From positions 6,966 to 70,965 of the forward strand of contig CAYXKD010000004.1 of assembly GCA_964464625.1 (NCBI GenBank): DNA of 64,000 nt, written 5' to 3'. The notes under the pieces were generated by a model. It saw only the letters and a program-made list of their open reading frames with translations. It made no database searches and was not told the origin of the DNA. Below are positions 19,342 through 38,070 of this stretch, piece by piece. Position 1 is the stretch's first letter, and every line of letters starts with the position of its first letter. The DNA is from an uncultured Syntrophomonadaceae bacterium. Its GTDB lineage: Bacteria; Bacillota; Dethiobacteria; DTU022. A program made the translations under genes and the position numbers.

Positions 19342-19386
19342 AACTATCCCCCAGTACAGAGATGATCTCTTTTCCTTTGGAAATAA

Positions 19387-19528: not shown

Positions 19529-19557
19529 CAAAAAAACCGTTCCTTGAAAGGAACGGC
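19529..19557 (-). terminator. Rho-independent terminator downstream of dacF
   Basis: Perfect hairpin ccgttcctt-gaa-aggaacgg followed on the minus strand by a run of seven T. Confidence 0.8.
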
Positions 19558-19703
19558 TCATCTCCGCCCGCCGGTGCCCGGCACATCTCCAGTTTCCTGA
19601 TCCCGGATCCCGGTGACCGGCACCTGCCAGTTTTTAAAGGAAGCGCCGATGAAAGGCAGCCAGGCCAGGCAAAGGGAAGGAGGCGCTGTCTTTTAAAGTA
19701 ACG

Positions 19704-20943: not shown

Positions 20944-21021
20944 AACTTAGTAAACCGGTGCCAGGCACCGGTTTACCTATACCAGTTAGTTAGTGAACTT
21001 GGTGCCTGGCACCGGTTTACC
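20944..21021. repeat. Two adjacent palindromic repeat units (copy B1 gtaaaccggtgccaggcaccggtttac; B2 gtgaacttggtgcctggcaccggtttac), between deoB stop and dacF start
   Basis: Seen directly in sequence. Confidence 0.9.
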
Positions 21022-22231
21022 AGAAGGGGGTGCCGTGGTTCAGGGGGGGGAGGTGCAGCCAGGCGGAGGCGGAGGCGCCGAGGTCGGCAAAGGAGGATCG
21101 GGTGCCCAGGTTGCAGCTCTGCTCAAGCGAGGGGCTCCAGGCAATGATGGGTACATGTTCGCGGGTGTGGTCCGTGCCCGGGAAGGTGGGGTCGCAGCCG
21201 TGGTCGGCGCTGATAAAAAGATAGTCCCCGCTGCGGAGCAGGGTGAGAATTTCTCCCAGGTGGGAGTCAAAACGCTCCAGGGAGCGGGCAAAACCGGAGC
21301 TGTCATTGCGGTGGCCGTACAGTGTGTCAAAGTCTCCGAAAGTGGCCCAGATAATGCCGCCGGGGCTCTCCCGGAGCAGCCCCTTCAGCGCGGCGGCGGT
21401 GGCTTCATTGTCTCCGCCGGGCCGGTGCAGGGTAATCCCCCGGTGGTTGAAGACATCGGCTACCTTGCCGATAACCGCCACAGGATAGCCTGCTGCGGCG
21501 GCAAGATCAAGAAGGGTTGTCCCCGGCGGGGAGAGGGAGAAATCTTTTCTCCGGATTGTCCGCTGAAAAGCGCCGGGTTCGCCTGTAAAGGGGCGTGCAA
21601 TAACCCTGCCCACGCCGTGCTCCCCCTGGAGGATGGCGCGCGCTTCGGCGCACCAGCGGTAGAGCTCTTCCGGAGGGATTATCTCTTCATGGGCTGCAAT
21701 CTGGAAGACGCTGTCCGCCGAGGTGTAAACTATGGGGCGGCCCGTCTGCAGGTGGTTCTCTCCCAGTTCCTTGATGATCTCCGTGCCTGAAGCGGGAATA
21801 TTGCCTAGAATAGGACGCCCGATAGCCTTTTCAAAGGCATCGATGACCTCCCGGGGAAAACCGCGCGGATAGAGGGGAAAGGGCTTTTCCAGAACAAGGC
21901 CGGCCAGTTCCCAGTGACCGCTGGTGGTGTCCTTCCCCGCAGCACGGGAGGCCATCCGTCCGTAGTAACCCGCATTAAGCAGCGGCGGGGCCCCCGGGGG
22001 GGCGGCAGTGCCCGCTGAGAGGGAAAGGATTTCCTCCAGGCCCAGGCGCTGCAGGTTGGGCAGCTCCAGGGGGCCTTCCTTGGAAATAACATGGAGCAGG
22101 GTGTTGGCGCCGGCATCCCCGTAAGAGGCGGCATCAGGGAGCTCACCCACGCCGCCGCCGTCGATGATAACAATAACCGCCCGCCGCCCTGTGATGACGG
22201 GGCTATCAGGCTCGCGGGTGTGTTTTGTCAT
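21017..22231 (-). CDS. deoB: Phosphopentomutase
   Basis: Alkaline-phosphatase-superfamily phosphopentomutase motifs (VIVIIDGGGVGELPDA...GDAGANTL). Internal Met start at 22231 with 26-bp overlap of xerD; ORF track extends to 22411. Confidence 0.85.
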   Translation of the reverse strand: MTKHTREPDSPVITGRRAVIVIIDGGGVGELPDAASYGDAGANTLLHVISKEGPLELPNLQRLGLEEILSLSAGTAAPPGAPPLLNAGYYGRMASRAAGKDTTSGHWELAGLVLEKPFPLYPRGFPREVIDAFEKAIGRPILGNIPASGTEIIKELGENHLQTGRPIVYTSADSVFQIAAHEEIIPPEELYRWCAEARAILQGEHGVGRVIARPFTGEPGAFQRTIRRKDFSLSPPGTTLLDLAAAAGYPVAVIGKVADVFNHRGITLHRPGGDNEATAAALKGLLRESPGGIIWATFGDFDTLYGHRNDSSGFARSLERFDSHLGEILTLLRSGDYLFISADHGCDPTFPGTDHTREHVPIIAWSPSLEQSCNLGTRSSFADLGASASAWLHLPPLNHGTPFW

Positions 22232-23093
22232 AGACCTCGCGGATTTTGCGGCGGGTAATCTGAGTATAGATTTGAGTGGTGGAGATATCCGAATGGCCCA
22301 GCAATTCCTGGACTGAAAGGAGATCGGCACCGTTTTCCAGCAGGTGGGTGGCAAAGGAATGGCGGATCGTATGCGGCGTGATATCGCCGCCAATTTTGGA
22401 TTGCCGGGCATATTTCTTCAGGATCTTCCAGAAGCCCTGCCTGGTTAAACGGCGTCCGTGATGGTTCAAAAATAGCGCCTTCTCATCGTTCATCTTAATC
22501 ATTTTCGGGCGGCAGTTGCGCAGGTATTCCCCCACATAATTCACTGCCACAGAGCCGATGGGTACAATCCGCTCTTTCATGGCCTTGCCCCGGCAGCGCA
22601 AATATCCCACCTCGGGACTGAAATCGACAACATTCAGGGAGACAAGCTCTGAAACGCGGATCCCCGAGGCATACAGCAGTTCGAGCATGGCTTTGTCACG
22701 CAAGCCTGCCTGGCTGTCGTCACGGGGCTGCCGCAGCAACCTGTCCACCTCTTTTGTGGTCAGAACACGGGGCAGTTTCTTCTCAATCCGCGGCGCTTTT
22801 ACCAGTTGCGCAGGGTTCTCTTCCATGAGATCTTCATGCACCAGAAAGTTGAAAAATGAACGAATGGAGGCCACATTGCGGGAAATAGTTGAAGGCGCCC
22901 TCCCATCCTCTTTCAGGCGGAGAAGATAGCGGGTGATGAGCGAGCGATCAACTTTTGACGGCGAGGATACCTTCTCTTTCTCCAGGAACTGAATAAATTT
23001 TTTCAAATCCCGCCTGTAAGAGTCGAGAGTATTCCGGGCCAGTCCTTTTTCTACAGAAAGATAATGGGAAAAATGCTCGAGCCACGAATGCAT
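22206..23093 (-). CDS. xerD: Site-specific tyrosine recombinase XerD
   Basis: XerD homology including HxxR...Y C-terminal catalytic motifs (HTIRHSFATHLLENGADL...LGHSDISTTQIYT). Confidence 0.9.
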   Translation of the reverse strand: MHSWLEHFSHYLSVEKGLARNTLDSYRRDLKKFIQFLEKEKVSSPSKVDRSLITRYLLRLKEDGRAPSTISRNVASIRSFFNFLVHEDLMEENPAQLVKAPRIEKKLPRVLTTKEVDRLLRQPRDDSQAGLRDKAMLELLYASGIRVSELVSLNVVDFSPEVGYLRCRGKAMKERIVPIGSVAVNYVGEYLRNCRPKMIKMNDEKALFLNHHGRRLTRQGFWKILKKYARQSKIGGDITPHTIRHSFATHLLENGADLLSVQELLGHSDISTTQIYTQITRRKIREVYDKTHPRA

Positions 23094-23183
23094 TGATGAG
23101 TTGCCCCCAAAAATGAAAATTCTTCAATCTATTCCACAGCCGTGAGAGAAAACCCTTTTTTAAACAAGCGATAAACCGGCATT

Positions 23184-23816
23184 TTAGAGAATTACCGGGA
23201 TCGCCATTTTTAAGAAAACAGGCGATATGAAAGTTTCCACCAGCACAGCTGCCGCCATCAACAGCCCCAACAGGAAAAACATGAATGAATAAGGCCCCAG
23301 GTGTTCAAAGAGGGAGCAGTCTCGTTTCTCCAGGTAGCAGCGCAGGCGGAGCCAGGAAAAAGAAAAAGCTGTAACACCGCAGGCGACGAGCGCCGGAATT
23401 AAGATAAGATTGTGCGGCAGCAGGGAAGCGGCGGCAAAAAGAACACCCCGCAGCGAAGAGCGCTGCACTAAAAAACCGACGGTAAAACCAAGCGAAAAAC
23501 CCCGCAGCCCCACCAGGGCGGCGATAAAAGGAAAGCCACACAAAAATATGCCCAGAAACCAGGTAAGCAGCAGGTAGTAGCAGTTCAGGAGCAGCGCCTG
23601 CCGGAAAAGAGCCCCCTGATCGATGGCCCCGGTGCCCTTTACATGCTCAACAAAGCAACCAAAATAGCGGTTCAGCAGGAGCAGTTTCTCCATCTCCAGC
23701 CCCCGCAGGGCAAAAGCACCGGCCAGCACACCGCCGGTAAAGAGGACGATGATAAGGATATATGTGCCCATGTTTTCCTGCAAATATTCCCTGAGTTGGC
23801 GCCTGATCTCCTCCAA
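23184..23816 (-). CDS. spoIIM: Stage II sporulation protein M
   Basis: SpoIIM family membrane protein (211 aa from TTG complement 23814-23816, RBS GGAGGGGG). ORF track over-extends to 24215 across nudF. Confidence 0.75.
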   Translation of the reverse strand: MEEIRRQLREYLQENMGTYILIIVLFTGGVLAGAFALRGLEMEKLLLLNRYFGCFVEHVKGTGAIDQGALFRQALLLNCYYLLLTWFLGIFLCGFPFIAALVGLRGFSLGFTVGFLVQRSSLRGVLFAAASLLPHNLILIPALVACGVTAFSFSWLRLRCYLEKRDCSLFEHLGPYSFMFFLLGLLMAAAVLVETFISPVFLKMAIPVIL

Positions 23817-23824
23817 GTCTCCCC

Positions 23825-23870
23825 CTCCTGCCAGGAAGAATTCGCTTATCTCTATGCAGCGGAAGGGTTG
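23825..23870 (-). promoter_or_regulatory. Possible sigma-E-type promoter for spoIIM
   Basis: Minus strand reads gcATAAAcaacccttccgctgCATAGAGAt, a weak match to the -35 ATATT / -10 CATACAnT consensus. Confidence 0.25.
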
Positions 23871-23871
23871 T

Positions 23872-24423
23872 TTATGCTGTGAGCAGAGCGGCAAAGTGCA
23901 GGGCGATGATCGTTTTGGCGTCATTGATCTCGCCCCGGATAAGGGCCTGCTGCGCTTCGGCCAGGTCAATCCAAAGATGCTCCAGGGTTTCGTCACCGTC
24001 GGGATCGGGCGTTCCTTCAGTAACTCCTTCAGCAAAAAAGAGATGGATTTTTTCATCGCAAAAGCCCGGTGAGGTGTAAAACCAGGTGAGCTGCCGCCAC
24101 TTTCCACCGCGGCAGCCTGTTTCCTCCGCCAGCTCCCTTTGAGCGCAGGTGAGCGGCTTTTCGCCGGCCTCCAGTTTCCCCGCAGGCACCTCCAGCAGGA
24201 TCCCCGAGGCGGCATGGCGGTACTGCCTTACCAGGAGCAGGCGCTTTTTTTCATCGAGCACCAGGATGGCCACGGCGCCGGGATGTTCCACGATTTCCCG
24301 CAAAGCGGGCTCTTTGCCGCCCGGGTAGAGGATCTGGTCCTGTCGGAGATTTACAATCCTTCCCCGGTAAAGATAGGTTGATGAAAGTGTCTCCTCCCAA
24401 AGCTCTTTTCCCTGCTTCTCCAT
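23872..24423 (-). CDS. nudF: ADP-ribose pyrophosphatase (NUDIX hydrolase)
   Basis: Nudix box GKLEAGEKPLTCAQRELAEETG. ATG at 24423 with RBS GGAGGAAG. Confidence 0.85.
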   Translation of the reverse strand: MEKQGKELWEETLSSTYLYRGRIVNLRQDQILYPGGKEPALREIVEHPGAVAILVLDEKKRLLLVRQYRHAASGILLEVPAGKLEAGEKPLTCAQRELAEETGCRGGKWRQLTWFYTSPGFCDEKIHLFFAEGVTEGTPDPDGDETLEHLWIDLAEAQQALIRGEINDAKTIIALHFAALLTA

Positions 24424-25528
24424 ATTCTTCCTCCCCTTCCTCTTCACTGGCCAGCCCGGCCAGCCGCAGCGCCGCAACGGCGGCAGCGGCGGCGGCATCA
24501 AAAAAATAAGGATCTTCCCGGTAGCTGCGTCCCATACTCTCCGGGGGATCCAGGCCCAACTGCTTCATGATCCTCTCCAGGGGCGGCGGCTGCAGCACCT
24601 GCAGGTTGTGGCGCCCCATCAGACCCCGCCCGGCAAGCTGCCCCAGGCAAAGGCGCAGCTGCGCCGGCGGCATCAGCGGAAGCGCCAGCAGCGCCGGAGT
24701 AAGGGCGGCCAGAGCCAGGGCGGTAAGGCTGTGGTGGCTGATCCCATAATGGCGCCTGCGGCGCTCGGCAAAGGAGATCCGGGGGATAAAAAGCGGAACC
24801 CCGCCCAGGGCATTGACGCGGTTCACATGATCGCCCGTCTCCATTCCGCTAAAGCCCAGGCTGCTCGCAGTGCCGATGCTGCCGGGTCCGGGGCCGAGAA
24901 TGATAAAATCTGCTTCCACCAGTGTGCGGCAGGCGGCCAGTGCGGAGTAGACATTTACCGCCTCCAGCTGGCCGCCAAAAGCATGGCCGCAGGTTACCGT
25001 GCCGCTGAGCAGCCCCCTTTCCTGCAGCCCGGCGATATTCCGGCTGTAGGCAAGGGGCAGTGCAGTCCCATCGGTCATGATGTAGGCAATCCGGCAGGAG
25101 GGCCGATAATATTTCAACACCGCAACGGCAGGGGTGACCATGCTGTGCAGCTCTCCAATGAGCACAGCAGTTTTTTCCAGACTCTTGAAGCGGGCCAGCC
25201 CCGCCCCGAAACCTGCTTCATCCTCTTCGCAGCTGAGCACGCGCATTTGCCAGGGAGTGTAGCAGAGTTTCATAATATGGCCGCTGCCCCCAAAGCGGGG
25301 CGGAGGGCAGCTGTAATTATGCTCCACAAAATGATATCCGCCGCTGCCGAGCGCCAGATGGAGCGCCGTTGTATTCAGCAGAAGCAGATCGCCCCTTTTC
25401 ACCGGGCCGGTAAGAAAATTATAATTCAGCGCTGCGCTCTCTTCACCGTCAACAATCACCTTTAGTTGGCTGACCCCGCCGCGCCTTTCCTTAACGGCGC
25501 CGGCCAGGCCTATGCGGTGGCGGATCAT
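24251..25528 (-). CDS. Conserved hypothetical protein, probably DUF3866 family; C-terminal 60-70 aa are low complexity and overlap nudF by 173 bp
   Basis: N-terminal region (...GDLLLLNTTALHLALGSGGYHFV...) resembles DUF3866 proteins as I recall them. The overlap suggests a frameshift or a late stop. Confidence 0.45.
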   Translation of the reverse strand: MIRHRIGLAGAVKERRGGVSQLKVIVDGEESAALNYNFLTGPVKRGDLLLLNTTALHLALGSGGYHFVEHNYSCPPPRFGGSGHIMKLCYTPWQMRVLSCEEDEAGFGAGLARFKSLEKTAVLIGELHSMVTPAVAVLKYYRPSCRIAYIMTDGTALPLAYSRNIAGLQERGLLSGTVTCGHAFGGQLEAVNVYSALAACRTLVEADFIILGPGPGSIGTASSLGFSGMETGDHVNRVNALGGVPLFIPRISFAERRRRHYGISHHSLTALALAALTPALLALPLMPPAQLRLCLGQLAGRGLMGRHNLQVLQPPPLERIMKQLGLDPPESMGRSYREDPYFFDAAAAAAVAALRLAGLASEEEGEEEYGEAGKRALGGDTFINLSLPGKDCKSPTGPDPLPGRQRARFAGNRGTSRRRGHPGAR

Positions 25529-26519
25529 CTTGTCGGCTCAAACCACCTTTGCTAACATTCTCCACCTCTTCCGGGTTTTCCTCTAAAAAAACCGGCTGCT
25601 CTCCCCCCGTGGGGAGGGGGCCGGTGGGGATGGGGATGCTCCAAAGAGGGGGGCGGAGGGCCTTTCTTGCACGGCGACAGCCCAGGTAATCGAGACGCCG
25701 CAACAGAGTATTGCCCTCTATTACCCTGCTCAGGGAGTAATACTCACAGAACAGATGGAGAGCGGCCCAAAAGAGGAGCAGCGCCCCCTGCGCGGGGAGG
25801 GGCAGGTAAAGCACGGCGCAGGCCCCCAGAGCAGCCCCCAGCAGATTGGCGCCGCAGTCGCCGAGCATGCCCGAGGCCTCCAGGTCCATGGGGGCGAGGG
25901 CCAGGGCCGGCACCACCAGGGGCAGCAGCAGCTCTGCCGCTGCGCCGGCGCACCTTCCCGCCAGGAATATGATGAGCAGGGCGCCGGTGAAGAAGAGCTT
26001 GAGCGCCCGTCCGGGGCGGCGGTCAAAAAGGTTAATCCCATTGGCGCTCAGCAAGATGAGCGGCAGCGCCGCCAGCCTGCGCCAGGGGGTAAAAGGGAGG
26101 GCTCCGGCGAAAAGGAAACTGACCTGCAGCGCCACAACCACCTTTAGCAGTCCGCCGGTGAGCCTCCCCCGCTTTCCGGCCCCGAAATGGCCTTTGAAAC
26201 CGCTCGTTGTATCGTTCATCAGATCATCCCAGAGGCCGAGAAAAGCGAAGCCCGTCAGGAGAAAGGGCAGCGCCGCCGCCGGGGGCGGGCTCCCGCCCCC
26301 CTCTCCCCCTCCTCCCCACCCTCCCCACCAGAGCACGGCGGCGGCTGCGGTGAGGTAGCCCAGGAGCAGGGCCGGCCCCAGGGCCGGGGAGACGGCCTCC
26401 CCGCGGTAGTTAACCTTTACCAGCCTTCTGCGCTCATAGAATTCGATGAGCCGCCGCCCCAGAAAGGCGGTCCAAAGCGGAGCTGCCAGCAGAACAGCCA
26501 TTCCCAAATAGTCCGGCAC
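25491..26519 (-). CDS. Glycosyltransferase family 4 (MraY/WecA-like polyprenyl-phosphate sugar-phosphate transferase)
   Basis: Multi-TM protein with GLWDDL and NGINLFD motifs. Its C-terminal tail overlaps the next ORF by 38 bp. Confidence 0.7.
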   Translation of the reverse strand: MPDYLGMAVLLAAPLWTAFLGRRLIEFYERRRLVKVNYRGEAVSPALGPALLLGYLTAAAAVLWWGGWGGGGEGGGSPPPAAALPFLLTGFAFLGLWDDLMNDTTSGFKGHFGAGKRGRLTGGLLKVVVALQVSFLFAGALPFTPWRRLAALPLILLSANGINLFDRRPGRALKLFFTGALLIIFLAGRCAGAAAELLLPLVVPALALAPMDLEASGMLGDCGANLLGAALGACAVLYLPLPAQGALLLFWAALHLFCEYYSLSRVIEGNTLLRRLDYLGCRRARKALRPPLWSIPIPTGPLPTGGEQPVFLEENPEEVENVSKGGLSRQDDPPPHRPGRRR

Positions 26520-26521
26520 GG

Positions 26522-27208: not shown

Positions 27209-27221
27209 CTTCCTATCCATA

Positions 27222-27938
27222 TCAGCGGCTCTCCAATGCAGGCGGTAGCAGCCCTCTGGCGGCGCTGTCAAAACCGTAGTGACCGCAGCCATCTTCAGCA
27301 AGCATGAGGAGCAGGGCTATCTCCCCCCAGAATGTATCGATATTGTCCACAAGGCTGGGCTCCCCTTTCATTCCCGGCGGTCCCATCTTCCCCCTGTTTT
27401 CCTGCCAGGGTAAAAGCGCGATCACCCTCATCCCCTTTTCATGCAGCAACCGCCAGAGTTCGTTAAAAAAGCTGCAGGGCTCCCGCCCCTCCCCTGTGAA
27501 AAGAAGGAGGATGCAGCACTCAGGGGGCCCCTGGAGCTCCCACCCCTCCCGCTGCCGCAGCTCCAATCCCAGCGGCTCCAGCTCTGCGGCGCTCATTCCC
27601 CCGGGGAGCGAGAGCAAATGGGAGAGCTCTGCGGCATCGGGCAGGGGACAACGGAGCTCACCGGTCTCCCCGGCCCCCTCTTCACCGGTGGAAGCGAGGA
27701 AAATGTGAGTTACCGCGGCGCCGCTTTCTTCGAGAAGTCCCCTTATCTGCTCCGCCTCTGACTCGCAGCGGCTGAATAGAACGATCCCCTTCCCGGTGAG
27801 CGCCCGGCAAAAGGTGCGTCGCAGCAGCGGCTTCGTCTCATCCCAGCGCTGCAGCTCCTTCTCCTGCCGCCGGCCAAGTTCCCTGAGGCCGCCCAGCTGC
27901 TCCTCCATGAGCTCGATGATGCCGCGCTGATTGGCCAC
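27222..27938 (-). CDS. SteB / MctB-like (copper transporter family) protein, C-terminal body; the N-terminal TM segment lies out of frame at about 27962-28049 (possible frameshift or pseudogene)
   Basis: Sits next to the steA homologue as in Actinobacteria. The main ORF begins at GTG directly after an in-frame TAG. A hydrophobic MctB-like segment EYLVAIGAVFLALALGILIGV is encoded upstream in another frame. Confidence 0.5.
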   Translation of the reverse strand: MANQRGIIELMEEQLGGLRELGRRQEKELQRWDETKPLLRRTFCRALTGKGIVLFSRCESEAEQIRGLLEESGAAVTHIFLASTGEEGAGETGELRCPLPDAAELSHLLSLPGGMSAAELEPLGLELRQREGWELQGPPECCILLLFTGEGREPCSFFNELWRLLHEKGMRVIALLPWQENRGKMGPPGMKGEPSLVDNIDTFWGEIALLLMLAEDGCGHYGFDSAARGLLPPALESR

Positions 27939-28092
27939 AAGGAGGCTGTCGCCAAAAGAGACCCCTATGAGGATCCCCAGGGCCAGGGCGAGAAAAACTG
28001 CGCCTATGGCAACTAAGTATTCCCGGTAGTCAAAGATAAAATCACCGCCTCAAAGCCAGTGCAGCCGGCCGGCGCAGGCGTGCTCTTAGCTG

Positions 28093-29262
28093 CTAAAGAA
28101 ACAATTGCAAACGAAAGATCAAGAGACGGAACAGGTGGCGGACCGGCGGAGAGTAAAAGGCCATCGTCAGCAGGGGACAGAGACCGGCGCAGAGAGCCAG
28201 GGGGAGCAGAAATCCTGCAGCCCGCCGCTGGTAGAGGAGGCTCACACCCTTGGCGTCAACAAGGCTGTGACCCACTTTCAGCCGCACCAGGAATGTGCTG
28301 GCCATCCCCATCCGCCCCTTTTCCAGAAATTCTGTCGCTGAAAAATGAGTCCCCACAGCAACGATCAGCGCCGCCCCCAGCTCGTGAGCCAGCAGCAGGG
28401 CAATATCTTCACTGGTTCCCGGTGCACTGAAAAGATGGTGTTTCAGGCCGAGACGGCCCAGCCTCTCGCGCCCGGGAACACCGCTGCCGTCGGCATAAGC
28501 ATGCACCACCAGCTCGCGGGCCTGCCGCAGCGCCTCATCGCTCACACTGTCCATATCGCCTATGATCAGGTCCGGCCTGAGACCGAATTCCAGTATTGCA
28601 TCTCCGCCTCCATCCACACCGATGAGGAGGGGCTTTTTTTCCCTGAGATAGTATTTCATCGCCCGGAGATCTTCGCGGAAACCCTTTCCCCGGATTACCA
28701 CCACCACATGGCGGTTCTTAAAGTCGCTTTTCAAAGGCGGGGGGTGGATCTTTCCGGTTACAAGAGCACGTTCCCTGTAGGCATAATCCAGGGTGTTTAC
28801 CAGGAAATTTTCAACAACCTCATCCCTCCGCTGCAGCGAATCCCTGTAAAATTCACTGTAAAGGCCTTCAGTCAGCAGGTTGCCGCGCCCTATTTCCATT
28901 CCCCGGCAATAGACCGCTGCCCCCACAACCCGGACCATCTCCCCCTGGCGCACCGCTTCAAAAAATTCTTCACCCAGATTTTCCACAAGGTGCACCTTCC
29001 GGCGGAGCAGTTGCTGCAGCGCCGCAGGCGGAAAAAGATCGCTGCAGAAGGGCTCTGTATTTAAAACTGTCCTGACACCGCAGCGCAGCAACCCCTCTGC
29101 TGCAGTCCAGTCCAGGCCGCAGTGGGAAATGAGGGCAATCTCTTTGGAGCGGAGCCGCTGGACAAGCTTTTTCGTAGAGCGATCTTTGCGGATCCGTCCC
29201 GCCCGGGAAAGAGCCTCTTTTCCTTTTCCTTTTCCTTTTCCTTTGTAGATGGAAGGAAACAT
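28093..29262 (-). CDS. steA: SteA-family putative cytokinetic-ring protein (thiamin pyrophosphokinase catalytic-domain-like) with C-terminal TM helices and an N-terminal (GK)n repeat
   Basis: SteA-like N-terminus (LVQRLRSKEIALISH...) and TPK-like core. The KGKGKGKGK repeat comes from tccttttccttttcc. Confidence 0.6.
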   Translation of the reverse strand: MFPSIYKGKGKGKGKEALSRAGRIRKDRSTKKLVQRLRSKEIALISHCGLDWTAAEGLLRCGVRTVLNTEPFCSDLFPPAALQQLLRRKVHLVENLGEEFFEAVRQGEMVRVVGAAVYCRGMEIGRGNLLTEGLYSEFYRDSLQRRDEVVENFLVNTLDYAYRERALVTGKIHPPPLKSDFKNRHVVVVIRGKGFREDLRAMKYYLREKKPLLIGVDGGGDAILEFGLRPDLIIGDMDSVSDEALRQARELVVHAYADGSGVPGRERLGRLGLKHHLFSAPGTSEDIALLLAHELGAALIVAVGTHFSATEFLEKGRMGMASTFLVRLKVGHSLVDAKGVSLLYQRRAAGFLLPLALCAGLCPLLTMAFYSPPVRHLFRLLIFRLQLFL

Positions 29263-29474
29263 TTTTACTCACACCCTTATTTAGCTTTCCCCCATCTCCC
29301 TTTCACATATTAAACAAATCAAGCCAATCCTTCCGTAAAGGTGCTGAGCTGTCAAATATAAGATTGCATGTTATGTCAACAAGGGGGGATAAATTGATCT
29401 CCTTGCGGACAATTTAAAAAAGCCTTACCAGCAACGCAAATACCATAATCAAACCGGAAGGAACGGCAAAGTTC

Positions 29475-30761: not shown

Positions 30762-30779
30762 TATTATTTATAATTGAAA

Positions 30780-30806
30780 GAAGGATTTTACAAGTGAATG
30801 TCGAAT
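30780..30806 (+). promoter_or_regulatory. Sigma-H-type promoter (-35 gaAGGAttt, 11-nt spacer, -10 gtcGAAT) overlapping a perfect Spo0A box TGTCGAA (30799-30805) upstream of spo0A
   Basis: Direct match to the sigma-H and 0A-box consensus sequences. Confidence 0.5.
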
Positions 30807-30849
30807 TTTTTATAGCAGATTCACTAAAATAAAGCAAGGGGGCTAAAAA

Positions 30850-31641
30850 GTGTTAAAAATAGTAGTGGCGGATGACAATCGTGATTTCAACGCCTTACTA
30901 ACTTCATACCTTTCTATGCAGCCCGATTTCGAAATTGTCGCCAGCGTATTTAACGGAAAGGAAGTCCTGGATGTTTTCGAGGATAACCAGATCGATGTAC
31001 TCATTCTAGATATTATCATGCCGCATCTTGACGGTATCGGAGTAATGGAGGCAATCGCAGAGATGGAGCTGGATCGCCGGCCCAGTGTGATCATGCTAAC
31101 AGCCTTTGGACATGAAAACATCACCAGGAGGGCAGTGGAACTGGGGGCTTCCTACTATATTTTAAAGCCCTTTGACATGGAGATGCTTCCTGAAAGAATC
31201 CGCCAGCTGGGCGGCGGCGATCTGGTCCGCGAAACCGGCCTTGCCGCTGTTGCAGCGAAGAAAATGGTTTCGAGGATTCCGCTGGAGGAGGAGGTTACCG
31301 AGATTATGCACCAGATCGGTATCCCCGCCCATATCAAGGGCTATCTGTACCTGCGCGACGCCATTATCATGGTTATTGAAGATATCGACCTCTTGGGCTC
31401 CATTACCAAGGTCTTGTATCCTGAAATTGCCGAGCGTTTCGACACCACACCCAGCCGGGTGGAGAGGGCAATCCGCCATGCTATTGAAGTTGCCTGGGCG
31501 CGCAACAGCATCGATGTGATCAAGAAATTTTTCGGCTACACCATCAAGACGGAGAAGGGCAAGCCCACCAATTCCGAATTTATCGCCATGGTGGCCGACC
31601 GCCTGCGCCTGCGCAATAAAAGCTTCACCGCCTATAACTAA
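30850..31641 (+). CDS. spo0A: Sporulation master response regulator Spo0A
   Basis: Receiver domain (VVADDNRDF...[10 protein letters not shown]) and Spo0A-specific C-terminal DNA-binding domain. GTG start with RBS AAGGGGG. Confidence 0.95.
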
Positions 31642-31709
31642 AGCTGCCGGCCATTGAAGAGGCGGCGGAGACAATAGCTTAAAAAGGTCCTTAAAAAATC
31701 ATAAAGTTA

Positions 31710-31738
31710 CCTGCGCCGGTGCCAGGCACCGGCGCAGG
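31710..31738. repeat. Palindromic repeat variant (cctgcgccggtgccaggcaccggcgcagg), copy C, between the convergent spo0A and sigma-54 activator genes
   Basis: 29-bp perfect palindrome sharing the ccggtgccaggcaccgg core with the other copies. Confidence 0.85.
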
Positions 31739-31748
31739 CAACTCGGGG

Positions 31749-31789
31749 AAACTCCGGGAAATTTCATTATAACCGGAGTTTTGCTTTTT
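31749..31789 (+). terminator. Rho-independent terminator of spo0A
   Basis: Hairpin aaactccgg...ccggagttt followed by ttgcttttt. Confidence 0.7.
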
Positions 31790-31839
31790 ACCGGGTCAAA
31801 GGGCAACAGGAAATGAGCAGGGGAAATCAAATAACCTGT

Positions 31840-33975
31840 TCAGTTGATGTTGTGGCGGCTGAGTTTCTCGTAGAACCAGGAGCGGCTCATGCCCAGAATG
31901 CGTGCGGCTTTGCTTCTGTTGCCACCGGCTTTTCGCAGGGCCCGGAGGATAGTCTCTTTTTCCAGCGCCTCCTGTTGCGACCGATACTCTGCCAGGGCTT
32001 CTTCTGGCCCCTCCGCAGCACCGGCGGCAGCGCTCTCCCCGCTTAGGGCAGCAGAGCCCTCGCCCCTTCTCCGCCGCAGGTGGTGCGGCAAATCCTCAGC
32101 CTCGATCACCCTGGCGCCTGTAAAATTCATCGCTCTCTCCACGGCATTCTCCAGCTCGCGCACATTTCCCGGCCAGCTGTAATCCTGCAGGGTCATCAGC
32201 GCCTCTTCCGAGATATCCTGCACCTCCAGGCTGAAAAGGCTGTTGTATTTCCTTAAAAAAGCATGGACCAGGGGCAGTATATCTTCAGGGCGCTCCCGCA
32301 GCGGCGGCACCGGCAGGGAGATGACATTGAGGCGGAAATATAGGTCTTTGCGGAAGCCCCCTTCGGAGACTTTCTGCTCCAGGTCCTGGTTCGTCGCCGC
32401 GATGACGCGGAGGTCTACGCGCCTTGTCTCTGTGGAGCCCACGCGGTCAAAGGTGCGATCCTGCAAAAAGCGGAGCAGCTTTGCCTGCAGCGGCAGGGGC
32501 AGATCGCCAATCTCGTCGAGAAAAAGGGTCCCCCCATCGGCCAGCTCGATGCGGCCGGGCTTGCCCGACTTCTGCGCCCCTGTAAAGGCGCCGGGAGCAT
32601 AGCCAAAAAGCTCCGATTCAATCAGGTTCTCCGGAATGGCGGCGCAGTTTATCTTTACAAAGGGCCCGTCGCGGCGCGGCCCGTCATAATGGATGGACTG
32701 GGCAAAGAGCTCCTTGCCCACGCCGCTCTCCCCATGTACCAGAACTGTGGAGAGGCCCTGTGCTGCCAGGCGGGCCTCGCGCTTCAGCCGCTCCATGGCC
32801 GGATTAAGGGTGATGATATCGTCAAAACGGTAGGGCCGTTCCCTGTAGCGCTCCTTTTTCAGCTCGGCCTGGAAGTGGGCCAGCCGGTGATCCATCGCCT
32901 CCAGGCGGCGGGCCAGGTCGCGCAGCTCGTCAACGCGGCGAAAACTGATTTTCCCCACCGCCCCGATGATCTGCCCGTCACGGACAATGGGGAGCCTGGA
33001 GACAACATAAGGTTTGCCTTCAACAAACTGAATGTCATTCAGCTCGGGAATTCCCGTCTTTACAATCACAGGAAGCCTGCTGTTTTCAAGAATTTCATCC
33101 ACCGGGCGGTGCAGCACCTCTCTCTCTTCCAGGCGCACAAAATCGAGAAAAGAGCGGTTCGTCAGTATGACCGCCCCATGTTCATCCACAACCACAATGG
33201 CGTCGTATCCAATGTCAAGGACTGTCTGGAGCGTGCGGTTAAGGCTTTTAACACTGCCCAGTTCCTCGGCAACCTGCTCCAGCTCGGTGATATCCTGGAA
33301 GATGGCGATGCCCCCGGCTACGCGGCCGCCGTCAAGAAGGGGGGTTTTGTTGACTACGGTGGCGGCGCCGCCGTAGGAGTATTTCGCCCCGATCTCCACT
33401 GTCCCCTCCTGCAGCAGCGGGGCCATGTTCAGGCCGGGCAGCAGCTCATCCAGGCTGCGGCCGGCGGCGCTCTCCCCGTCAAGCCCGAAAAGCTGGGCGG
33501 CGGCGCGGTTGATAAGGTTAATGCGGCAGGATTGATCCACCGAGATAAGACCGTTGTGCATCGCCTGGTAGACCGCTCTCAGGCGGGCGTTGAGCATGCG
33601 CTCCTCCTTGAAGAGGGAGGTGATAAGCTCCACCTTGGTGAAAAGCCCGGCTACAGAGCCGTCTTTCCCCACGACCACGCCTGTGCCTACGGGAATGCGG
33701 TGCACTGAGTCGATGACCTCGCTGTAGGTGAGGTCCACGGGGATCTTCACCACATTGCGGTTGTAAAACCTGTACACAGGTTCATCCAGGGTGCTCTCTT
33801 TCAGGAGAGCGTCGTAGAGATTTGTCTTCGTAAATATTCCGGCCAGGGTGCCGTCGTCATTCAATACAGGCAGTCCGTCACGCTGGCTGCTGCGCAGCAT
33901 CCGCACCGCCTTCTTCAGGGTGTCGCCGGGATGCAAGGTGGCATAATCCCGGGTCATCATATCAACAAGGTGCAT
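31840..33975 (-). CDS. Sigma-54-dependent transcriptional activator (CBS pair, PAS, AAA+ sigma-54 interaction domain, Fis-type HTH)
   Basis: GESGVGKELFAQSIH Walker A, GAFTGA motif, C-terminal HTH. Confidence 0.85.
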   Translation of the reverse strand: MHLVDMMTRDYATLHPGDTLKKAVRMLRSSQRDGLPVLNDDGTLAGIFTKTNLYDALLKESTLDEPVYRFYNRNVVKIPVDLTYSEVIDSVHRIPVGTGVVVGKDGSVAGLFTKVELITSLFKEERMLNARLRAVYQAMHNGLISVDQSCRINLINRAAAQLFGLDGESAAGRSLDELLPGLNMAPLLQEGTVEIGAKYSYGGAATVVNKTPLLDGGRVAGGIAIFQDITELEQVAEELGSVKSLNRTLQTVLDIGYDAIVVVDEHGAVILTNRSFLDFVRLEEREVLHRPVDEILENSRLPVIVKTGIPELNDIQFVEGKPYVVSRLPIVRDGQIIGAVGKISFRRVDELRDLARRLEAMDHRLAHFQAELKKERYRERPYRFDDIITLNPAMERLKREARLAAQGLSTVLVHGESGVGKELFAQSIHYDGPRRDGPFVKINCAAIPENLIESELFGYAPGAFTGAQKSGKPGRIELADGGTLFLDEIGDLPLPLQAKLLRFLQDRTFDRVGSTETRRVDLRVIAATNQDLEQKVSEGGFRKDLYFRLNVISLPVPPLRERPEDILPLVHAFLRKYNSLFSLEVQDISEEALMTLQDYSWPGNVRELENAVERAMNFTGARVIEAEDLPHHLRRRRGEGSAALSGESAAAGAAEGPEEALAEYRSQQEALEKETILRALRKAGGNRSKAARILGMSRSWFYEKLSRHNIN

Positions 33976-33977
33976 AT

Positions 33978-35714
33978 CTATTTCCCCCCGGGGCTGGATC
34001 GTGCTTCTTTTTTGAACCTATCCGCCCGCTCCAGCAGGCTGTCCACATGCTCCAGGCCGGCCTGGTCGATGGCTGCTCCGTCAAGCATGCGGGCGATCTC
34101 CCTGCGCCTCTCTTCGGGATTAAGCTGCGCCGCCCTGGTCAGGGTGCGCTCTCCGGCGTGCTCCTTGTAGAGGCGCATATGGCTTCCGGCCATGGCGGCT
34201 ATCTGGGGGCTGTGGGTGACGCAGATGATCTGGTGATGAGCCGCCAGCAGGGCCAGCTTCTCGGCCACAGACTGGATCGCTGCGCCGCCGATGCCGGCGT
34301 CAACCTCGTCAAAGATGATCGTGGGGATGCGCTCCTCTCCGGCAAAGATGGTCTTTATGGCAAGCATCACCCGCGACATCTCTCCGCCTGAAATGATCCT
34401 GGACAGCGGTTTGAGCTCTTCACCGGGGTTTGCCGAGAAAAGGAACTCCACCCGGTCCATCCCCTGGGGCGTAAAGCTCTCGAGGGGGGCCAGCGCAACG
34501 CTAAAGCGCGCTTTGGGCATGGCCAGCTCCTGAAGGAGGCTGCCCAGGAGCGGCTCCAGCTGCTCCGCCGCATCGCGGCGCAGCCCGGTGAGCCGGCGGG
34601 AGGCGCCGGCAAGCTTCTCTGCCGCGGCCTCAATCTCCCCCTCCAGTTGGCGGGCCAGCGACTCGCTGTTCTGCAGCCTGGAGAGCTCCTCCTTTGCCCG
34701 CCCTGCAAACTCAATTACCCCGGCGAGTGTGCCCCCATACTTTCTTTTCAAAACCTGCAGCTGCTCCAGACGCCGCTGTACCGCTGCCAGCTCAGCGGGA
34801 TTGTATTCAAAAGCGGCCTGGTAATCGCGCAGCTCAAAGGAGACCTCCTCCATCTGCGCAGCGGCGCTTTCAAGCAGCACCACAAGGGGAGCCAGTTTTT
34901 CATCGATCTGCGCCGCCTCCTGCAGCTGATTCCTGGAGAGAGCAAGGAGATCAACCATGGGGGGGATTCCGCTGCGCTCATCGCCGCTGTAAATCCCGGC
35001 GTGGGCGGAGGCGATGAGCCCGCCCAGCTTCTCCGCATGGGCCAGGATCTTCTCTTCCCTGAGCAGCCTCTCCTCTTCATCGGGTTGGAGCTTCGCCTCT
35101 TCGATCTCCTTTGTCTGAAAAGAGAGAATATCCATGCGCCGCTCCCGCTCAGCGCTGTCATGCCCCAGGGAGGCAAGCTGCTCCAGGAGCCCCTGGCGCA
35201 GCCGGTAAAGCCCCTGCACCTCGCTGCGGGCCCGGGCACACCTTTCACCGCCAAAGGAGTCGAGGAGATCGCGGTGGTAATTAAGCCGTAAAAGCGACTG
35301 GTGCTGGTGCTGCCCGTGCAGATCGACAAGGAGCTGTCCCAGCTCCTTCAGGAAAGAGATGGGCACCGCCCTTCCGTTTACCCGCCCGATGCTGCGGCCG
35401 CTGTGCGAAATTTCCCGGGCAACAATGAGGGCATCACCATCACCGGCTTCAATGCCCGCCTCTTCCAGAAGGGCTTTCATCTCCGCCTCCGGGGAGGCGG
35501 CAGGGTAATGAAAGATCCCCTCAACAAAGGCGCTCTTTTCGCCCTGGCGGATCTGCTCCGTAGAGGCGCGCTCACCCAGAAGCAGATTGATCGCCCCGAT
35601 GACAATCGACTTTCCCGCCCCTGTCTCACCGCTGAGCACATTCAGCCCCTCTCCGAAATTCAGGGTGAGATCTTCAATAAGGGCTAACTGCGAAACCCGG
35701 ATCTCAGTGAGCAT
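33978..35714 (-). CDS. recN: DNA repair protein RecN
   Basis: SMC-like ATPase with N-terminal Walker A GETGAGKS and C-terminal signature. Confidence 0.95.
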   Translation of the reverse strand: MLTEIRVSQLALIEDLTLNFGEGLNVLSGETGAGKSIVIGAINLLLGERASTEQIRQGEKSAFVEGIFHYPAASPEAEMKALLEEAGIEAGDGDALIVAREISHSGRSIGRVNGRAVPISFLKELGQLLVDLHGQHQHQSLLRLNYHRDLLDSFGGERCARARSEVQGLYRLRQGLLEQLASLGHDSAERERRMDILSFQTKEIEEAKLQPDEEERLLREEKILAHAEKLGGLIASAHAGIYSGDERSGIPPMVDLLALSRNQLQEAAQIDEKLAPLVVLLESAAAQMEEVSFELRDYQAAFEYNPAELAAVQRRLEQLQVLKRKYGGTLAGVIEFAGRAKEELSRLQNSESLARQLEGEIEAAAEKLAGASRRLTGLRRDAAEQLEPLLGSLLQELAMPKARFSVALAPLESFTPQGMDRVEFLFSANPGEELKPLSRIISGGEMSRVMLAIKTIFAGEERIPTIIFDEVDAGIGGAAIQSVAEKLALLAAHHQIICVTHSPQIAAMAGSHMRLYKEHAGERTLTRAAQLNPEERRREIARMLDGAAIDQAGLEHVDSLLERADRFKKEARSSPGGK

Positions 35715-35802
35715 CTGGAGCCTCCCCCTCCTTATTTGGCTTACTCTTTCGTCTCTTCTTTTGTTTTTTCCCTACCTGATCCTTATTTTCTCCCCGCCGC
35801 CC

Positions 35803-36654
35803 CTACCCTTTTAATTTCTGATGGAGCAGCCGGTAAAAAGAGTTGTCCCTAAAATGAATGAGCTTCACTTTCTGCGCCGCCTTCCTGACAAGGACCTCAT
35901 CTTTCTCCTGCAGGTCAAAGCCCACCTGCCCGTCTGCAGTGAGCACTATCTCTGCCTGCCGCGATTCAATGCGCATCAGGATCTGCTCCTCTGCGGTAAC
36001 GATAACGGAACGGTTATTCAGGCTGTGCGGGCAGATGGGGGTAATCACGATGAGCTCCAGGGAAGGGTTCACAATGGGCCCGCCGGCGGATAGGGAATAG
36101 CCGGTGGAGCCTGTGGGCGAGGCCACGATAACCCCGTCGCCTGAATAGCTCTCCAGAAAATCATCATTGATAAAGGTGTTCAGCCTGAGGATCCTGGAAA
36201 AGGGGCCCCGCGAAACAACGATATCATTGAGGGCGATAAACTGCTCCAGCACCTGCCCCTGCCGCTGCACCCTGGCTTCGAGCATCATCCGCTCCAGGTA
36301 ATGGTACTGTCCTGCGATGACATATTGCAGGTAGCGGTCGATCTGCTCCACCTCGATCTCCGCCAGAAAGCCTTTGTGCCCCATGTTGATCCCCAGTATG
36401 GGAACATCCCAGTGCACCAGATCGCGGGCCGCCCTGAGAATGGTCCCATCGCCCCCCACAACAATGAGTATATCCACCTGGCCGCGCCAGCTTTCCAGGT
36501 TCTTCGCCAGGGCGCCGGGGTCCTGGCAATCAGCCTCATCTGAACCTGCCGTAAGCAGCAGGACCCGGCGCTGTTCAAAAAAATCGCATACCTTTTCCAC
36601 AACAAGTGCTGTATTCTCTTTTTGCCAATTTGGGATTAATCCAATGCCGCGCAT
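35803..36654 (-). CDS. nadK: NAD kinase
   Basis: GGDGT motif and NAD kinase fold. Confidence 0.9.
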   Translation of the reverse strand: MRGIGLIPNWQKENTALVVEKVCDFFEQRRVLLLTAGSDEADCQDPGALAKNLESWRGQVDILIVVGGDGTILRAARDLVHWDVPILGINMGHKGFLAEIEVEQIDRYLQYVIAGQYHYLERMMLEARVQRQGQVLEQFIALNDIVVSRGPFSRILRLNTFINDDFLESYSGDGVIVASPTGSTGYSLSAGGPIVNPSLELIVITPICPHSLNNRSVIVTAEEQILMRIESRQAEIVLTADGQVGFDLQEKDEVLVRKAAQKVKLIHFRDNSFYRLLHQKLKG

Positions 36655-36663
36655 GGCCCCTCC

Positions 36664-37212
36664 TTAATAAATGGAACCCCTCATAAGGTGCCCCAGAAAT
36701 ACAATCCCCATGATAATGAGCAGGATGAGCGCCCCTTTCCAGAGCAGCCCTTTTCCGCCCCTCTCTGCGCTCCCGTAAGCGAAACGAACCTCTTCAAGCT
36801 TCCCTTTCTCCTCATGGTAGAAGAAGATGCCGCTCGTCTGAAAGAAGAGGGAGTCCAGAAGCAGTTCCCGCCGCAGCTGTGACCGGACCGGAGCGCTGTC
36901 GCCTTTAATCACCTTCACCAGGAAGCTCTCGCCGCCCCTGGAGACGATGAAATCGCCTTCATAATTGAAGCTGTTCTCTTTTCCGCCTACAATCATGGTC
37001 ACCGGCACCGATGGATGGATCTCCTCCAGCCGGTAGCCGCCTTCCTGCAGCAGATGCCAGGCCTTCTGCTCCCGGCGGGTTAGCGGCCTTACAGCCCGCC
37101 GCACCGTATTAGAGCGGCGCCGGCCCTTCCGGTTGGCAATATAGAGGGCGAGAAATGCACCGGAGAGGAGGAGCAGCCAGATATAATCCTGCCATCGCAA
37201 AGGGATCACCAC
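36664..37212 (-). CDS. Hypothetical membrane protein with a possible PD-(D/E)xK / NERD-like nuclease fold, occupying the position usually held by argR
   Basis: N- and C-terminal TM helices. Central motif GDFIVSRGGESFLVKVIKGD. No confident family assignment. Confidence 0.35.
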   Translation of the reverse strand: MVIPLRWQDYIWLLLLSGAFLALYIANRKGRRRSNTVRRAVRPLTRREQKAWHLLQEGGYRLEEIHPSVPVTMIVGGKENSFNYEGDFIVSRGGESFLVKVIKGDSAPVRSQLRRELLLDSLFFQTSGIFFYHEEKGKLEEVRFAYGSAERGGKGLLWKGALILLIIMGIVFLGHLMRGSIY

Positions 37213-37273
37213 CAGGCGTACAACTATACTCTATTATTCGCCGGGCTACTTTCAATTCCTTTTTGATCTAGGA

Positions 37274-38070
37274 TTATTTTACCAGTTCGCTGTGGGCCCT
37301 CTTCACTGCTGCAGAGATCTTTTCTTCGAGATCGGCGGGGCAGGAGCAGGCGCCGCCGCTCAACTTCAGGTGGATGAAAAATTCCAGATTGCCCCTGGGC
37401 CCGGGAAGGTGCGAGAATGTAATAGCGGCGGTGCAGTAACCTGTGCTGCAGGCGAAAGCGGTAAGGTCGTGCAGCACCGCCTTGTGCAGCCGGGGATCGC
37501 GGATTACACCCTTTCCCCTGCCGGCATCGCGGCGCCCCACCTCAAACTGGGGCTTCACCAGGGCGAGCAGCCCGGGAATGGAGCTCTCCTTCAAAACGGG
37601 CAGGACCAGCCGCAGCGAGATAAAGGAGAGGTCGATAACCGCCAGACTGGGGATTGTGGGAAGATCCTGCGGCTTTAAGTGTCGGATGTTAAAGCGCTCC
37701 ATCACCGTCACCTGCGGGTGGCGCCGCAGCGCCCAGTCAAGCTGGCCGTAACCCACGTCCAGGGCGATAATCCGGTCGGCACCGCGCTGCAGCAGGCAGT
37801 CTGTGAAGCCTCCCGTGGAGGCTCCCACATCGAGGATGGTGAGCCCCTCCACATTTATCTCCAGGTCGTCGAGCGCCCCGGCCAGTTTTATCCCGCCCCT
37901 GCTGACATAGCGCCGCTGCGGTTCCAGAAGCGTAATCCGGGCGTCGCGGGGATAGAGCATGCCCGGCTTGGAGCAAGGCCGCCCCTCAACGTGCACGCGG
38001 CCTGACATGATTTCACTGCGGGCGCGGTTGCGGCTGATCCCGGGATAGCGCTCTGTAAGCAAAATGTCGA
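37274..38070 (-). CDS. tlyA: TlyA-family rRNA 2'-O-methyltransferase (S4 domain plus FtsJ-like MTase); start uncertain
   Basis: RLDILLTERYPGISRNRARSEIMSGRVHV (S4) and LDVGASTGGFTDCLLQRGA (SAM). ORF track extends to 38437 through low-complexity sequence and into dxs, which is implausible. Confidence 0.75.

Follow-up and report, generated by a model that had tools for sequence, protein, structure and literature searches.

Background

SteA and SteB (Rv1697 and Rv1698 in Mycobacterium tuberculosis) assemble at the septum into a transmembrane complex, which promotes cell separation dependent on RipC/RipA (PMC6705760, PMC12977500). The conserved pocket of SteA is similar to a phosphonucleotide site, with a carbohydrate as its predicted ligand; uridine and guanosine diphosphate (UDP and GDP) stabilise the Corynebacterium glutamicum protein, CgSteA, and research on mycobacterial cell division has yet to settle which ligand SteA binds and what triggers SteAB-dependent separation (PMC12977500). 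The linkage analysis of Lim et al. (2019) was limited to steA-steB (PMC6705760). Carloni et al. (mBio 2026, PMC12977500) reported the pair in a subset of the Bacillota, mainly Clostridia, immediately downstream of spo0A, and suggested a role in sporulation as possible; the downstream transferase genes, pyrG and recN are not mentioned in their paper. Here, we describe the steA-steB locus in a 64,000-nucleotide (nt) stretch of DNA (the window) from the metagenome-assembled genome (MAG) of an uncultured Syntrophomonadaceae bacterium (assembly GCA_964464625.1, contig CAYXKD010000004.1, positions 6,966 to 70,965), in which tlyA-nadK-recN lies upstream of the pair and nudix-xerD lies downstream.

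A second described system is the cdr20291_1053-1057 gene cluster of Clostridioides difficile, a set of essential genes of unknown function studied by CRISPR interference (CRISPRi) and transposon sequencing (Tn-seq) (J Bacteriol 2025, PMC12548448). The five products are annotated as a 'pyrophosphokinase' (373 aa), a 'putative exported protein' (291 aa), a family 2 glycosyl transferase (230 aa), a 'glycosyl transferase family protein' (274 aa) and a DUF3866 protein (355 aa), and knock-down causes chaining and short, swollen, phase-bright cells (PMC12548448). The authors listed the cluster among the essential genes that 'warrant further investigation' and drew no connection to SteAB (PMC12548448). 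The gene directly before it, CDR20291_1052, is spo0A (PMC5311115).

Our analysis indicates that the locus very probably represents an old, mostly vertically inherited housekeeping backbone that carries a steA-steB-GT2-MraY-like-DUF3866 module and into which sporulation genes were inserted in the Bacillota. The position of SteAB beside spo0A in Clostridia and the essentiality of the C. difficile five-gene cluster are already published; what appears to be new is the link that joins SteAB to that essential cluster and to an unnamed family of MraY-like proteins, which is conserved alongside SteAB in different phyla.

Results

Gene order around steA in Bacillota, Actinomycetota and Armatimonadota

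When one genome per GTDB species was searched with a SteA alignment, 80 steA loci were recovered, with flanking sequence of at most 10 kb on either side (approximately 50 from Clostridia-type Bacillota, 28 from Actinomycetota and two from Armatimonadota). Phylum labels were taken from record titles, and three were overridden. The window proteins and, later, cluster representatives were mapped onto these loci by tblastn, on which all counts are based since spurious antisense open reading frames (ORFs) spoil naive ORF calling in high-GC actinobacterial loci; the denominators below are the loci with enough flank.

The initial annotation of the window had proposed that its tlyA-nadK-recN, steA-steB and nudix-xerD neighbourhood is deeply conserved and shared with Actinobacteria, and the survey bears this out: the same order was found on the same strand in both phyla, and one Armatimonadota locus (L048) reads nadK-recN-steA-steB. 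Upstream of steA, recN was present within 10 kb in 22/23 actinobacterial and 30/41 Bacillota loci. We estimate that a single-copy gene would lie within 10 kb of steA by chance in less than 1% of cases in a genome of a few Mb, and the correspondence is therefore far beyond chance. Likewise, tlyA was found upstream in 22/22 actinobacterial and 28/38 Bacillota loci and nadK in 22/22 and 18/39, while dxs preceded tlyA in 14/22 and 26/37, respectively, and ispA stood ahead of dxs in both phyla. Downstream of steA, the actinobacterial and Bacillota counts were 20/24 and 41/41 for the MraY-like gene, 12/22 and 29/36 for DUF3866, 9/22 and 23/36 for nudix, and 9/22 and 21/36 for xerD; a GT2 gene on the same strand followed in 5/26 and 44/44 loci. 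This steA-seeded neighbourhood analysis, which the initial annotation had suggested, links steA to recN and to xerD within the Bacillota as well. The main difference concerned spo0A, which lay immediately upstream of steA in 40/45 Bacillota loci and in 0/26 actinobacterial loci. In 23/26 actinobacterial loci, recN and steA were separated by no more than 302 nt, whereas in most Bacillota loci the gap measured 2.3-3.8 kb and was filled by spoIVB-spo0A.

In a neighbour-joining tree of 73 SteA sequences, all actinobacterial proteins grouped into a single clade, which had the two Armatimonadota sequences as its sister and lay outside the Bacillota groups. Three loci (L002, L021 and L065) had titles at odds with their content. 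Two MAG contigs titled Desulfovibrio or Desulfovibrionaceae carry spo0A/spoIVB or the Bacillota xerD-deoB-dacB order, and in one titled Eubacteriales the order is of the Coriobacteriia type and SteA falls among the actinobacterial sequences of the tree; these contigs are probably mis-binned or mislabelled.

Mycobacterial gene order and the position of pyrG

The M. tuberculosis order tlyA-nadK-recN-steA-mctB-pyrG-nudix-xerD had been given in the initial annotation. Our full-text literature search found no paper giving Rv1694-Rv1701 together, although an lprJ-recN operon holding tlyA, ppnK and recN has been described (PMC3072309). We rebuilt the M. tuberculosis SteA (MtSteA) sequence from a PDB alignment, and a search with it returned 100%-identical proteins. 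One of them, identical over the solved part of MtSteA, is encoded on a contig (L081) in which FtsJ/S4 (tlyA), NAD kinase, SMC_N (recN), SteA, MctB, CTP synthase, NUDIX and tyrosine recombinase genes follow one another on one strand, matching the order given. The nudix and xerD genes overlap in M. tuberculosis, whereas spoIIM separates them in the window.

It had also been proposed that pyrG was replaced in the window by a GT2-GT4-DUF3866 trio. We rejected this idea, since the trio genes coexist with pyrG in deep-branching Actinobacteria: the MraY-like and DUF3866 genes, and sometimes GT2, stand beside pyrG there. Solirubrobacterales/Thermoleophilia read efp-ispA-dxs ... tlyA-nadK-recN-steA-steB-MraY-like-pyrG-M20-DUF3866-nudix-xerD. 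Coriobacteriia-type loci read steA-steB, then GT2 and MurJ-like genes on the opposite strand, a gene for a 759-aa membrane protein, and MraY-like-pyrG-(M20)-DUF3866. In Actinomycetes (Actinomadura, Cryptosporangium, Jiangellales and Varibaculum), the order is steA-steB-MraY-like-MurJ family-GT4/GT1 transferase-pyrG-nudix-xerD, and in M. tuberculosis it is steA-steB-pyrG-nudix-xerD. An M20 peptidase gene between the MraY-like and DUF3866 genes also occurs in Syntrophomonadaceae. The co-occurrence of MraY-like, DUF3866 and pyrG genes in Actinobacteria indicates that the trio is part of a shared block; judged from these gene orders, MraY-like and DUF3866, and more loosely GT2, belong to a putative ancestral block from which Mycobacteriales lost them.

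The initial annotation had further suggested profiling DUF3866 against steAB and the glycosyltransferase genes. In the reverse test, which used 80 metagenome loci centred on DUF3866, 35/41 loci whose flanks were long enough had steA upstream, and 42/49 had GT2. The link between DUF3866 and steA is strong, not obligate.

Two metagenome contigs, L114 and L134, read steA-steB-GT2-pyrG-M20-DUF3866-nudix-xerD-deoB and contain no sporulation genes there; they unite the pyrG/M20 insert of Actinobacteria with the deoB continuation of Bacillota. They may represent a deep-branching lineage informative for the ancestral order.

SteA and SteB

Gene identities in the window were assigned by Pfam and NCBIfam scans, and every gene named in the initial annotation was found close to where it had been placed. 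The steA gene (28093-29262, minus strand) encodes a membrane-anchored cytoplasmic protein with a thiamine-pyrophosphokinase (TPK)-like domain. It matches NF040608 (putative cytokinetic ring protein) along its full length, over residues 22-388, with 410.8 bits against a cutoff of 150, and residues 22-345, which comprise the cytoplasmic core, match the crystal structures of MtSteA and CgSteA (9hmy, E=3e-50; 9hmz, E=2e-33). The TPK-like nucleotide-binding domain was recognised by PF04263 (32.5 bits, cutoff 30.7), and a GVDGGxD ... GDxDS stretch is common to the window protein and MtSteA. A C-terminal transmembrane helix with a SteA-like_C segment was recognised by PF12555 (29.4 bits, cutoff 26.4, residues 338-389). 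By these sequence and structure matches, the protein qualifies as an unambiguous SteA orthologue.

The steB gene (MctB family) adjoins steA on its downstream side (minus strand, 27222-27938 or extending to 28037). Its short and divergent product matches PF11382 at 26.8 bits (cutoff 25.6) over its last 38 residues only; however, the SteB blastp cluster to which it belongs covers 62 loci, and 37/37 scanned members match PF11382 (best E=4.5e-83). The first canonical start codon is a GTG at 27938, and the codons for an N-terminal transmembrane helix, YLVAIGAVFLALALGILIGV, lie ahead of it in the same frame. Inspection of the window reading frame revealed no ATG, GTG or TTG ahead of the helix-coding stretch, and an ATC at 28037, 10 nt past a GAGG, is the sole candidate start that would cover the helix. 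Translation in the region 27938-28037 begins at a non-canonical codon, or else the assembly is in error there.

The GT2, MraY-like and DUF3866 genes

Three genes for putative sugar-handling proteins follow steB on the minus strand. The first (26522 to about 27220) encodes a soluble GT2 glycosyltransferase of approximately 230 aa (PF00535, 85 bits) with weak similarity to GpgS, AglJ and PpgS, and its start overlaps the stop codon of steB.

The second gene (25491-26519), which encodes a membrane protein, had been called a GT4 glycosyltransferase. The gene is present as annotated; its class is not CAZy family GT4, which we rejected, since it belongs to the Pfam Glycos_transf_4 family of the MraY/WecA phosphosugar-transferase superfamily (PF00953, with matches to MraY structures). 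The window protein itself falls under the Pfam threshold for PF00953 (15 bits, cutoff 27, E=0.026) and matches no NCBIfam model. The family profile, built from a 35-sequence alignment, matches MraY structures at E=9e-10, and 24/35 members match PF00953 at E<0.01 (best 1.1e-12). Residues D98, D99, N160, N163, D166, G220 and D221 are invariant in the 35 sequences, and the DD pair, NxxNxxD and GD motifs align to the DD, NAVNLTD and MGDVG segments of MraY. The canonical DGxDGL continuation is absent, and DLRPGR stands in 35/35 sequences; the C-terminal HHH segment of MraY falls outside the alignment, the family being approximately 85 residues shorter than MraY.

The third gene (24251-25528) encodes a DUF3866 protein of 425 aa that matches PF12982 with 363 bits over profile positions 2-318 of 318. 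Its AlphaFold2 model (pLDDT 91, pTM 0.90) combines an N-terminal OB-like barrel with a Rossmann/SIMIBI-like domain, and comparison of the model with the PDB returned no convincing structural relative. To judge from its invariant His, Arg and Glu residues, the protein may be an enzyme or may bind phosphate; the conserved positions include H84, K87, Y90, Q94, E101/E102, H128, R250, R257, R259, H260, S264-H265-H266 and R334. In the window lineage, the DUF3866 protein (425 aa vs approximately 365) and the MraY-like protein (342 aa vs approximately 277) both carry low-complexity C-terminal extensions (24251-24434 and 25491-25665, respectively, minus strand), each overlapping the next gene; the DUF3866 proteins of close relatives measure 416-489 aa.

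The reading frames from steA to xerD abut or overlap, except for gaps of at most approximately 90 nt ahead of spoIIM and of xerD. The steB/GT2, MraY-like/DUF3866 and DUF3866/nudix pairs overlap, and the spacing from GT2 to the MraY-like gene is 2 nt.

The sizes of the C. difficile proteins match those encoded at the Peptostreptococcaceae loci L003, L010 and L014. Given these matching sizes and the identity of CDR20291_1052 as spo0A, cdr20291_1053-1057 is almost certainly the same five-gene unit as steA-steB-GT2-MraY-like-DUF3866.

Sporulation genes and lineage-specific rearrangements

The initial annotation had pictured sporulation genes as having colonised an older module. As history, this description holds: in the Bacillota, sporulation genes occupy junctions at which the neighbouring genes are closely spaced in Actinobacteria and Armatimonadota, with spoIVB-spo0A widening the gap between recN and steA, and spoIIM standing between nudix and xerD. 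In Peptostreptococcus canis (L011) and in the metagenome loci L143 and L149, recN is followed by steA with spoIVB and spo0A absent between them; by our reading of its taxonomy, P. canis lost these two genes secondarily.

In the window, spoIVB (S55 peptidase; 29475-30761, plus strand; PF05580, 277 bits) and spo0A (30850-31641, plus strand; PF08769, 154 bits) are inverted as a unit (29475-31641) relative to nearly all other Bacillota loci examined, and the inversion is shared by the closest relatives (L002, L082, L083 and L086). We found no inverted repeats flanking the inverted segment beyond a hairpin terminator at 31704-31744 (a 19-bp stem followed by a T tract), which is the sole strong terminator of the block and lies between spo0A and a converging gene for a sigma-54-dependent activator. 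This activator (31840-33975, minus strand; PF00158, 230 bits, with CBS, PAS and HTH_8 domains) begins 2 nt past the recN stop codon. It is a lineage-specific insertion, being absent at this site in the inversion-sharing relatives L083 and L086; comparable activators are found on the downstream side of the MraY-like gene in L063 and in two Halanaerobiales loci, L020 and L057. The divergent genes steA and spoIVB face away from a 212-nt intergenic region. The Spo0A box has the sequence TGTCGAA, and this region contains two candidate heptamers resembling it, TGTCAAA (29350-29356) and TGTCAAC (29374-29380).

Genes flanking the module

All remaining genes of the block lie on the minus strand. Upstream of steA, recN (33978-35714) encodes a 578-aa protein with an SMC_N domain (PF02463), and nadK (35803-36654) an NAD kinase (PF20143 and PF01513). 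Between nadK and tlyA lies a lineage-specific ORF of 182 aa (36664-37212), for which Pfam and NCBIfam scans returned zero family matches and which tblastn detected at the same position in the related metagenome contigs L086, L120, L137 and L140. The tlyA gene (37274 to about 38062; TIGR00478, 222 bits) encodes an rRNA 2'-O-methyltransferase with FtsJ and S4 domains; its start is uncertain, as the mechanical ORF extends to 38437 and overlaps dxs. The dxs gene (38179-40077; PF13292, 393 bits), for 1-deoxy-D-xylulose-5-phosphate synthase, forms the upstream end of the conserved backbone.

Downstream of the DUF3866 gene, a NudE/YffH-like Nudix hydrolase gene (ADP-sugar pyrophosphatase-like; 23872 to about 24423; PF00293, 81 bits) starts at an ATG at 24423 preceded by GGAGG, and spoIIM (23184 to about 23816; TIGR02831, 150 bits) starts at a TTG at 23816 with a ribosome-binding site ahead of it. 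They are followed by xerD (22206-23093; TIGR02225, 380 bits, cutoff 330) and a deoB-like phosphopentomutase gene (21017-22231; PF01676), which extends the Bacillota backbone xerD-deoB-pdp-dacF-spoIIA. Further downstream (7565-20885, minus strand) are a dacF-like gene, spoIIAA, spoIIAB, sigF, spoVAD and gerA, together with genes for a CBS-DHH poly(A)-polymerase/CCA-adding-type protein and an M50 peptidase, trpS, scpA and scpB. The window has xseA and ispA upstream of the block and scpA/scpB downstream; in M. tuberculosis, scpA/scpB presumably also lie a few genes past xerD, and in L075 scpA lies 2.6 kb past xerD.

A full-length OLE (ornate large extremophilic) RNA was detected at 40775-41352 (minus strand, 470 bits), directly upstream of an oapA-like gene for a DUF21/CNNM-like membrane protein (40089-40685, minus strand), which is followed by dxs. 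The mechanical ORF at 40896-41597 (plus strand) overlaps this RNA and is probably spurious.

Discussion

Ancestry of the locus

The pattern of the SteA clades and the same housekeeping order on both sides of the module together speak for ancient shared ancestry rather than for a transfer of the module. The backbone common to Bacillota, Actinomycetota and at least some Armatimonadota would read (efp)-ispA-dxs-tlyA-nadK-recN-steA-steB-(GT2)-MraY-like-(pyrG, M20)-DUF3866-nudix-xerD, with scpA/scpB further on. In the Bacillota stem, spoIVB-spo0A would have been inserted at recN/steA, spoIIM at nudix/xerD and dacF-spoIIA-spoVA past xerD/deoB; later, in the window lineage, spoIVB-spo0A would have been inverted and the sigma-54 activator added past recN. 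By itself, the synteny is a solid but ordinary case of long-range gene-order conservation, and the linkage of steAB to recN and xerD most likely reflects historical inertia rather than shared function.

If the steA-to-DUF3866 module had instead moved horizontally between phyla and landed beside recN twice, the order would not be ancestral. The identity of the window SteA to actinobacterial SteA (44-48%, vs 41-49% to most other Bacillota SteA) is in keeping with such a transfer, as is the patchy distribution of SteAB in the Bacillota, where it has been reported in a subset only, mainly Clostridia (PMC12977500). Nevertheless, we regard this history as improbable, since ispA, dxs, tlyA, nadK and recN on one side and nudix and xerD on the other follow the same order in both phyla, making independent insertion at the same junction unlikely; moreover, actinobacterial SteA forms a single clade outside the Bacillota groups, and the order recurs in Armatimonadota (L048). 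An equally slim chance attaches to the view that clostridial SteAB and the genes after it are sporulation genes, acting in asymmetric septation, engulfment or cortex formation, which would explain their place between spo0A/spoIVB and spoIIM. To the extent that the initial annotation implied a link between SteAB and sporulation, it is not supported. The direct succession of spo0A and steA in most Bacillota loci, the suggestion by Carloni et al. based on this adjacency (PMC12977500) and the two candidate 0A-box-like sites between steA and spoIVB all fit a sporulation role. However, the C. difficile cluster past spo0A is essential for vegetative growth (PMC12548448; PMC5311115) and its knock-down phenotype concerns vegetative division and shape (PMC12548448); the same genes occur in the same order in Actinobacteria and Armatimonadota, with spo0A in none of the 26 actinobacterial loci; and the non-sporulating P. 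canis keeps the genes, spoIVB and spo0A not being found between its recN and steA.

A more serious, though still doubtful, possibility is that the whole arrangement is a frozen gene order without functional coupling, in which the glycan genes serve an unrelated pathway. The backbone genes dxs, tlyA, nadK, recN, pyrG, nudix and xerD are functionally heterogeneous and nonetheless conserved, and conserved order alone is therefore no proof of shared function; in addition, Corynebacteriales retain steAB without the glycan genes. On the other hand, GT2 and the MraY-like gene follow steB in every Bacillota locus scored, with overlapping or abutting frames, and the MraY-like gene stays beside steB in Actinomycetes despite other gene changes. 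Furthermore, every targeted gene of the C. difficile cluster gives the same phenotype, although CRISPRi is polar (PMC12548448), and UDP and GDP, which SteA binds (PMC12977500), are released as leaving groups by transferases of this kind.

A possible function of the five-gene module

Within the vertically inherited backbone, steA-steB-GT2-MraY-like-DUF3866 has the layout of a single tightly packed, operon-like unit. By homology to the complex demonstrated in Corynebacterium and M. tuberculosis, the cytoplasmic, nucleotide-binding, membrane-anchored SteA and the extracytoplasmic SteB would place and activate a septal peptidoglycan hydrolase. The most likely role of the MraY-like, GT2 and DUF3866 proteins is to make or modify a sugar linked to polyprenyl phosphate or to a nucleotide, and the flux of this sugar, or its UDP/GDP by-product, may be read by the SteA pocket, coupling glycan synthesis to cell separation. 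To judge from the encoded families, the MraY-like gene followed by a MurJ-family flippase gene and a GT4/GT1 transferase gene in Actinomycetes looks like the make-up of a lipid-linked glycan pathway. We tentatively propose, as a possibility still short of probable, that SteAB does not regulate a hydrolase on its own but serves as the arm for sensing and output in a five-gene unit ancestral to the Terrabacteria, to which Bacillota, Actinomycetota and Armatimonadota belong. The sugar made by the MraY-like, GT2 and DUF3866 proteins, or the UDP/GDP by-product, would be the SteA ligand that licenses septal peptidoglycan cleavage; Mycobacteriales/Corynebacteriales would have kept the SteAB arm alone, and the whole unit would be essential in Clostridia.

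Several points weigh against these interpretations. The 80 loci, being those that tblastn matched best to the window SteA, are neither a random nor a phylogenetically balanced sample, and the SteA tree, biased to window-SteA-like sequences, is midpoint-rooted and without support values. No DUF3866 gene lay within 10 kb of steA in 7/36 Bacillota loci, and steA was not nearby in 6/41 of the loci centred on DUF3866. SteAB functions in Corynebacteriales without the MraY-like, GT2 and DUF3866 genes, which shows that the glycan genes are not generally required. The window SteB is short, divergent and without a canonical start codon, and a RipA/RipC-type partner hydrolase of SteAB is not known in Clostridia, none having been searched for. 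The orthology of cdr20291_1053-1057 is inferred from annotation, protein sizes and position past spo0A, with the sequences unaligned, and the polarity of the CRISPRi phenotypes prevents their assignment to single genes (PMC12548448).

Comparison with described systems

The upstream half of the locus resembles the ispA-OLE-oapA-dxs-tlyA context of OLE RNA that is conserved in Bacillota: the OLE RNA and oapA-like gene lie directly upstream of dxs-tlyA-nadK-recN. In contrast to the usual adjacency of ispA and OLE, a flavoprotein oxidoreductase gene, an ArAE-family exporter gene and an FTCD_C gene separate ispA (46028-47107) from OLE in the window. This likeness has no bearing on steAB.

The MraY-like family keeps the DD pair, NxxNxxD and GD motifs of the MraY/WecA PNPT superfamily (PF00953) but differs from it in length (approximately 277 aa vs approximately 360 aa) and in having NLxDLRPGR in place of NxxNxxDGxDGL. 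Compared with SteA-SteB of C. glutamicum and M. tuberculosis (PMC6705760, PMC12977500), the window encodes a SteA with the same TPK-like domain and C-terminal membrane anchor, followed by an MctB-family steB, with tlyA-nadK-recN upstream and nudix-xerD downstream. However, its SteB is shorter and very divergent, GT2, MraY-like and DUF3866 genes that Mycobacteriales lack follow steB, and pyrG is absent from the locus.

A further counterpart is the C. difficile cluster, whose five genes, directly past spo0A, are of the same types as those of the steA-DUF3866 unit and follow the same order; the window differs in its inverted spoIVB-spo0A and in the C-terminal extensions of its MraY-like and DUF3866 proteins. 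The C. difficile cluster appears to represent a SteAB system accompanied by three co-conserved genes for sugar handling, partners that SteAB also has in deep-branching Actinobacteria, and this comparison supplies both candidates for the pathway read by SteA and, in C. difficile, a tractable organism in which to test them.

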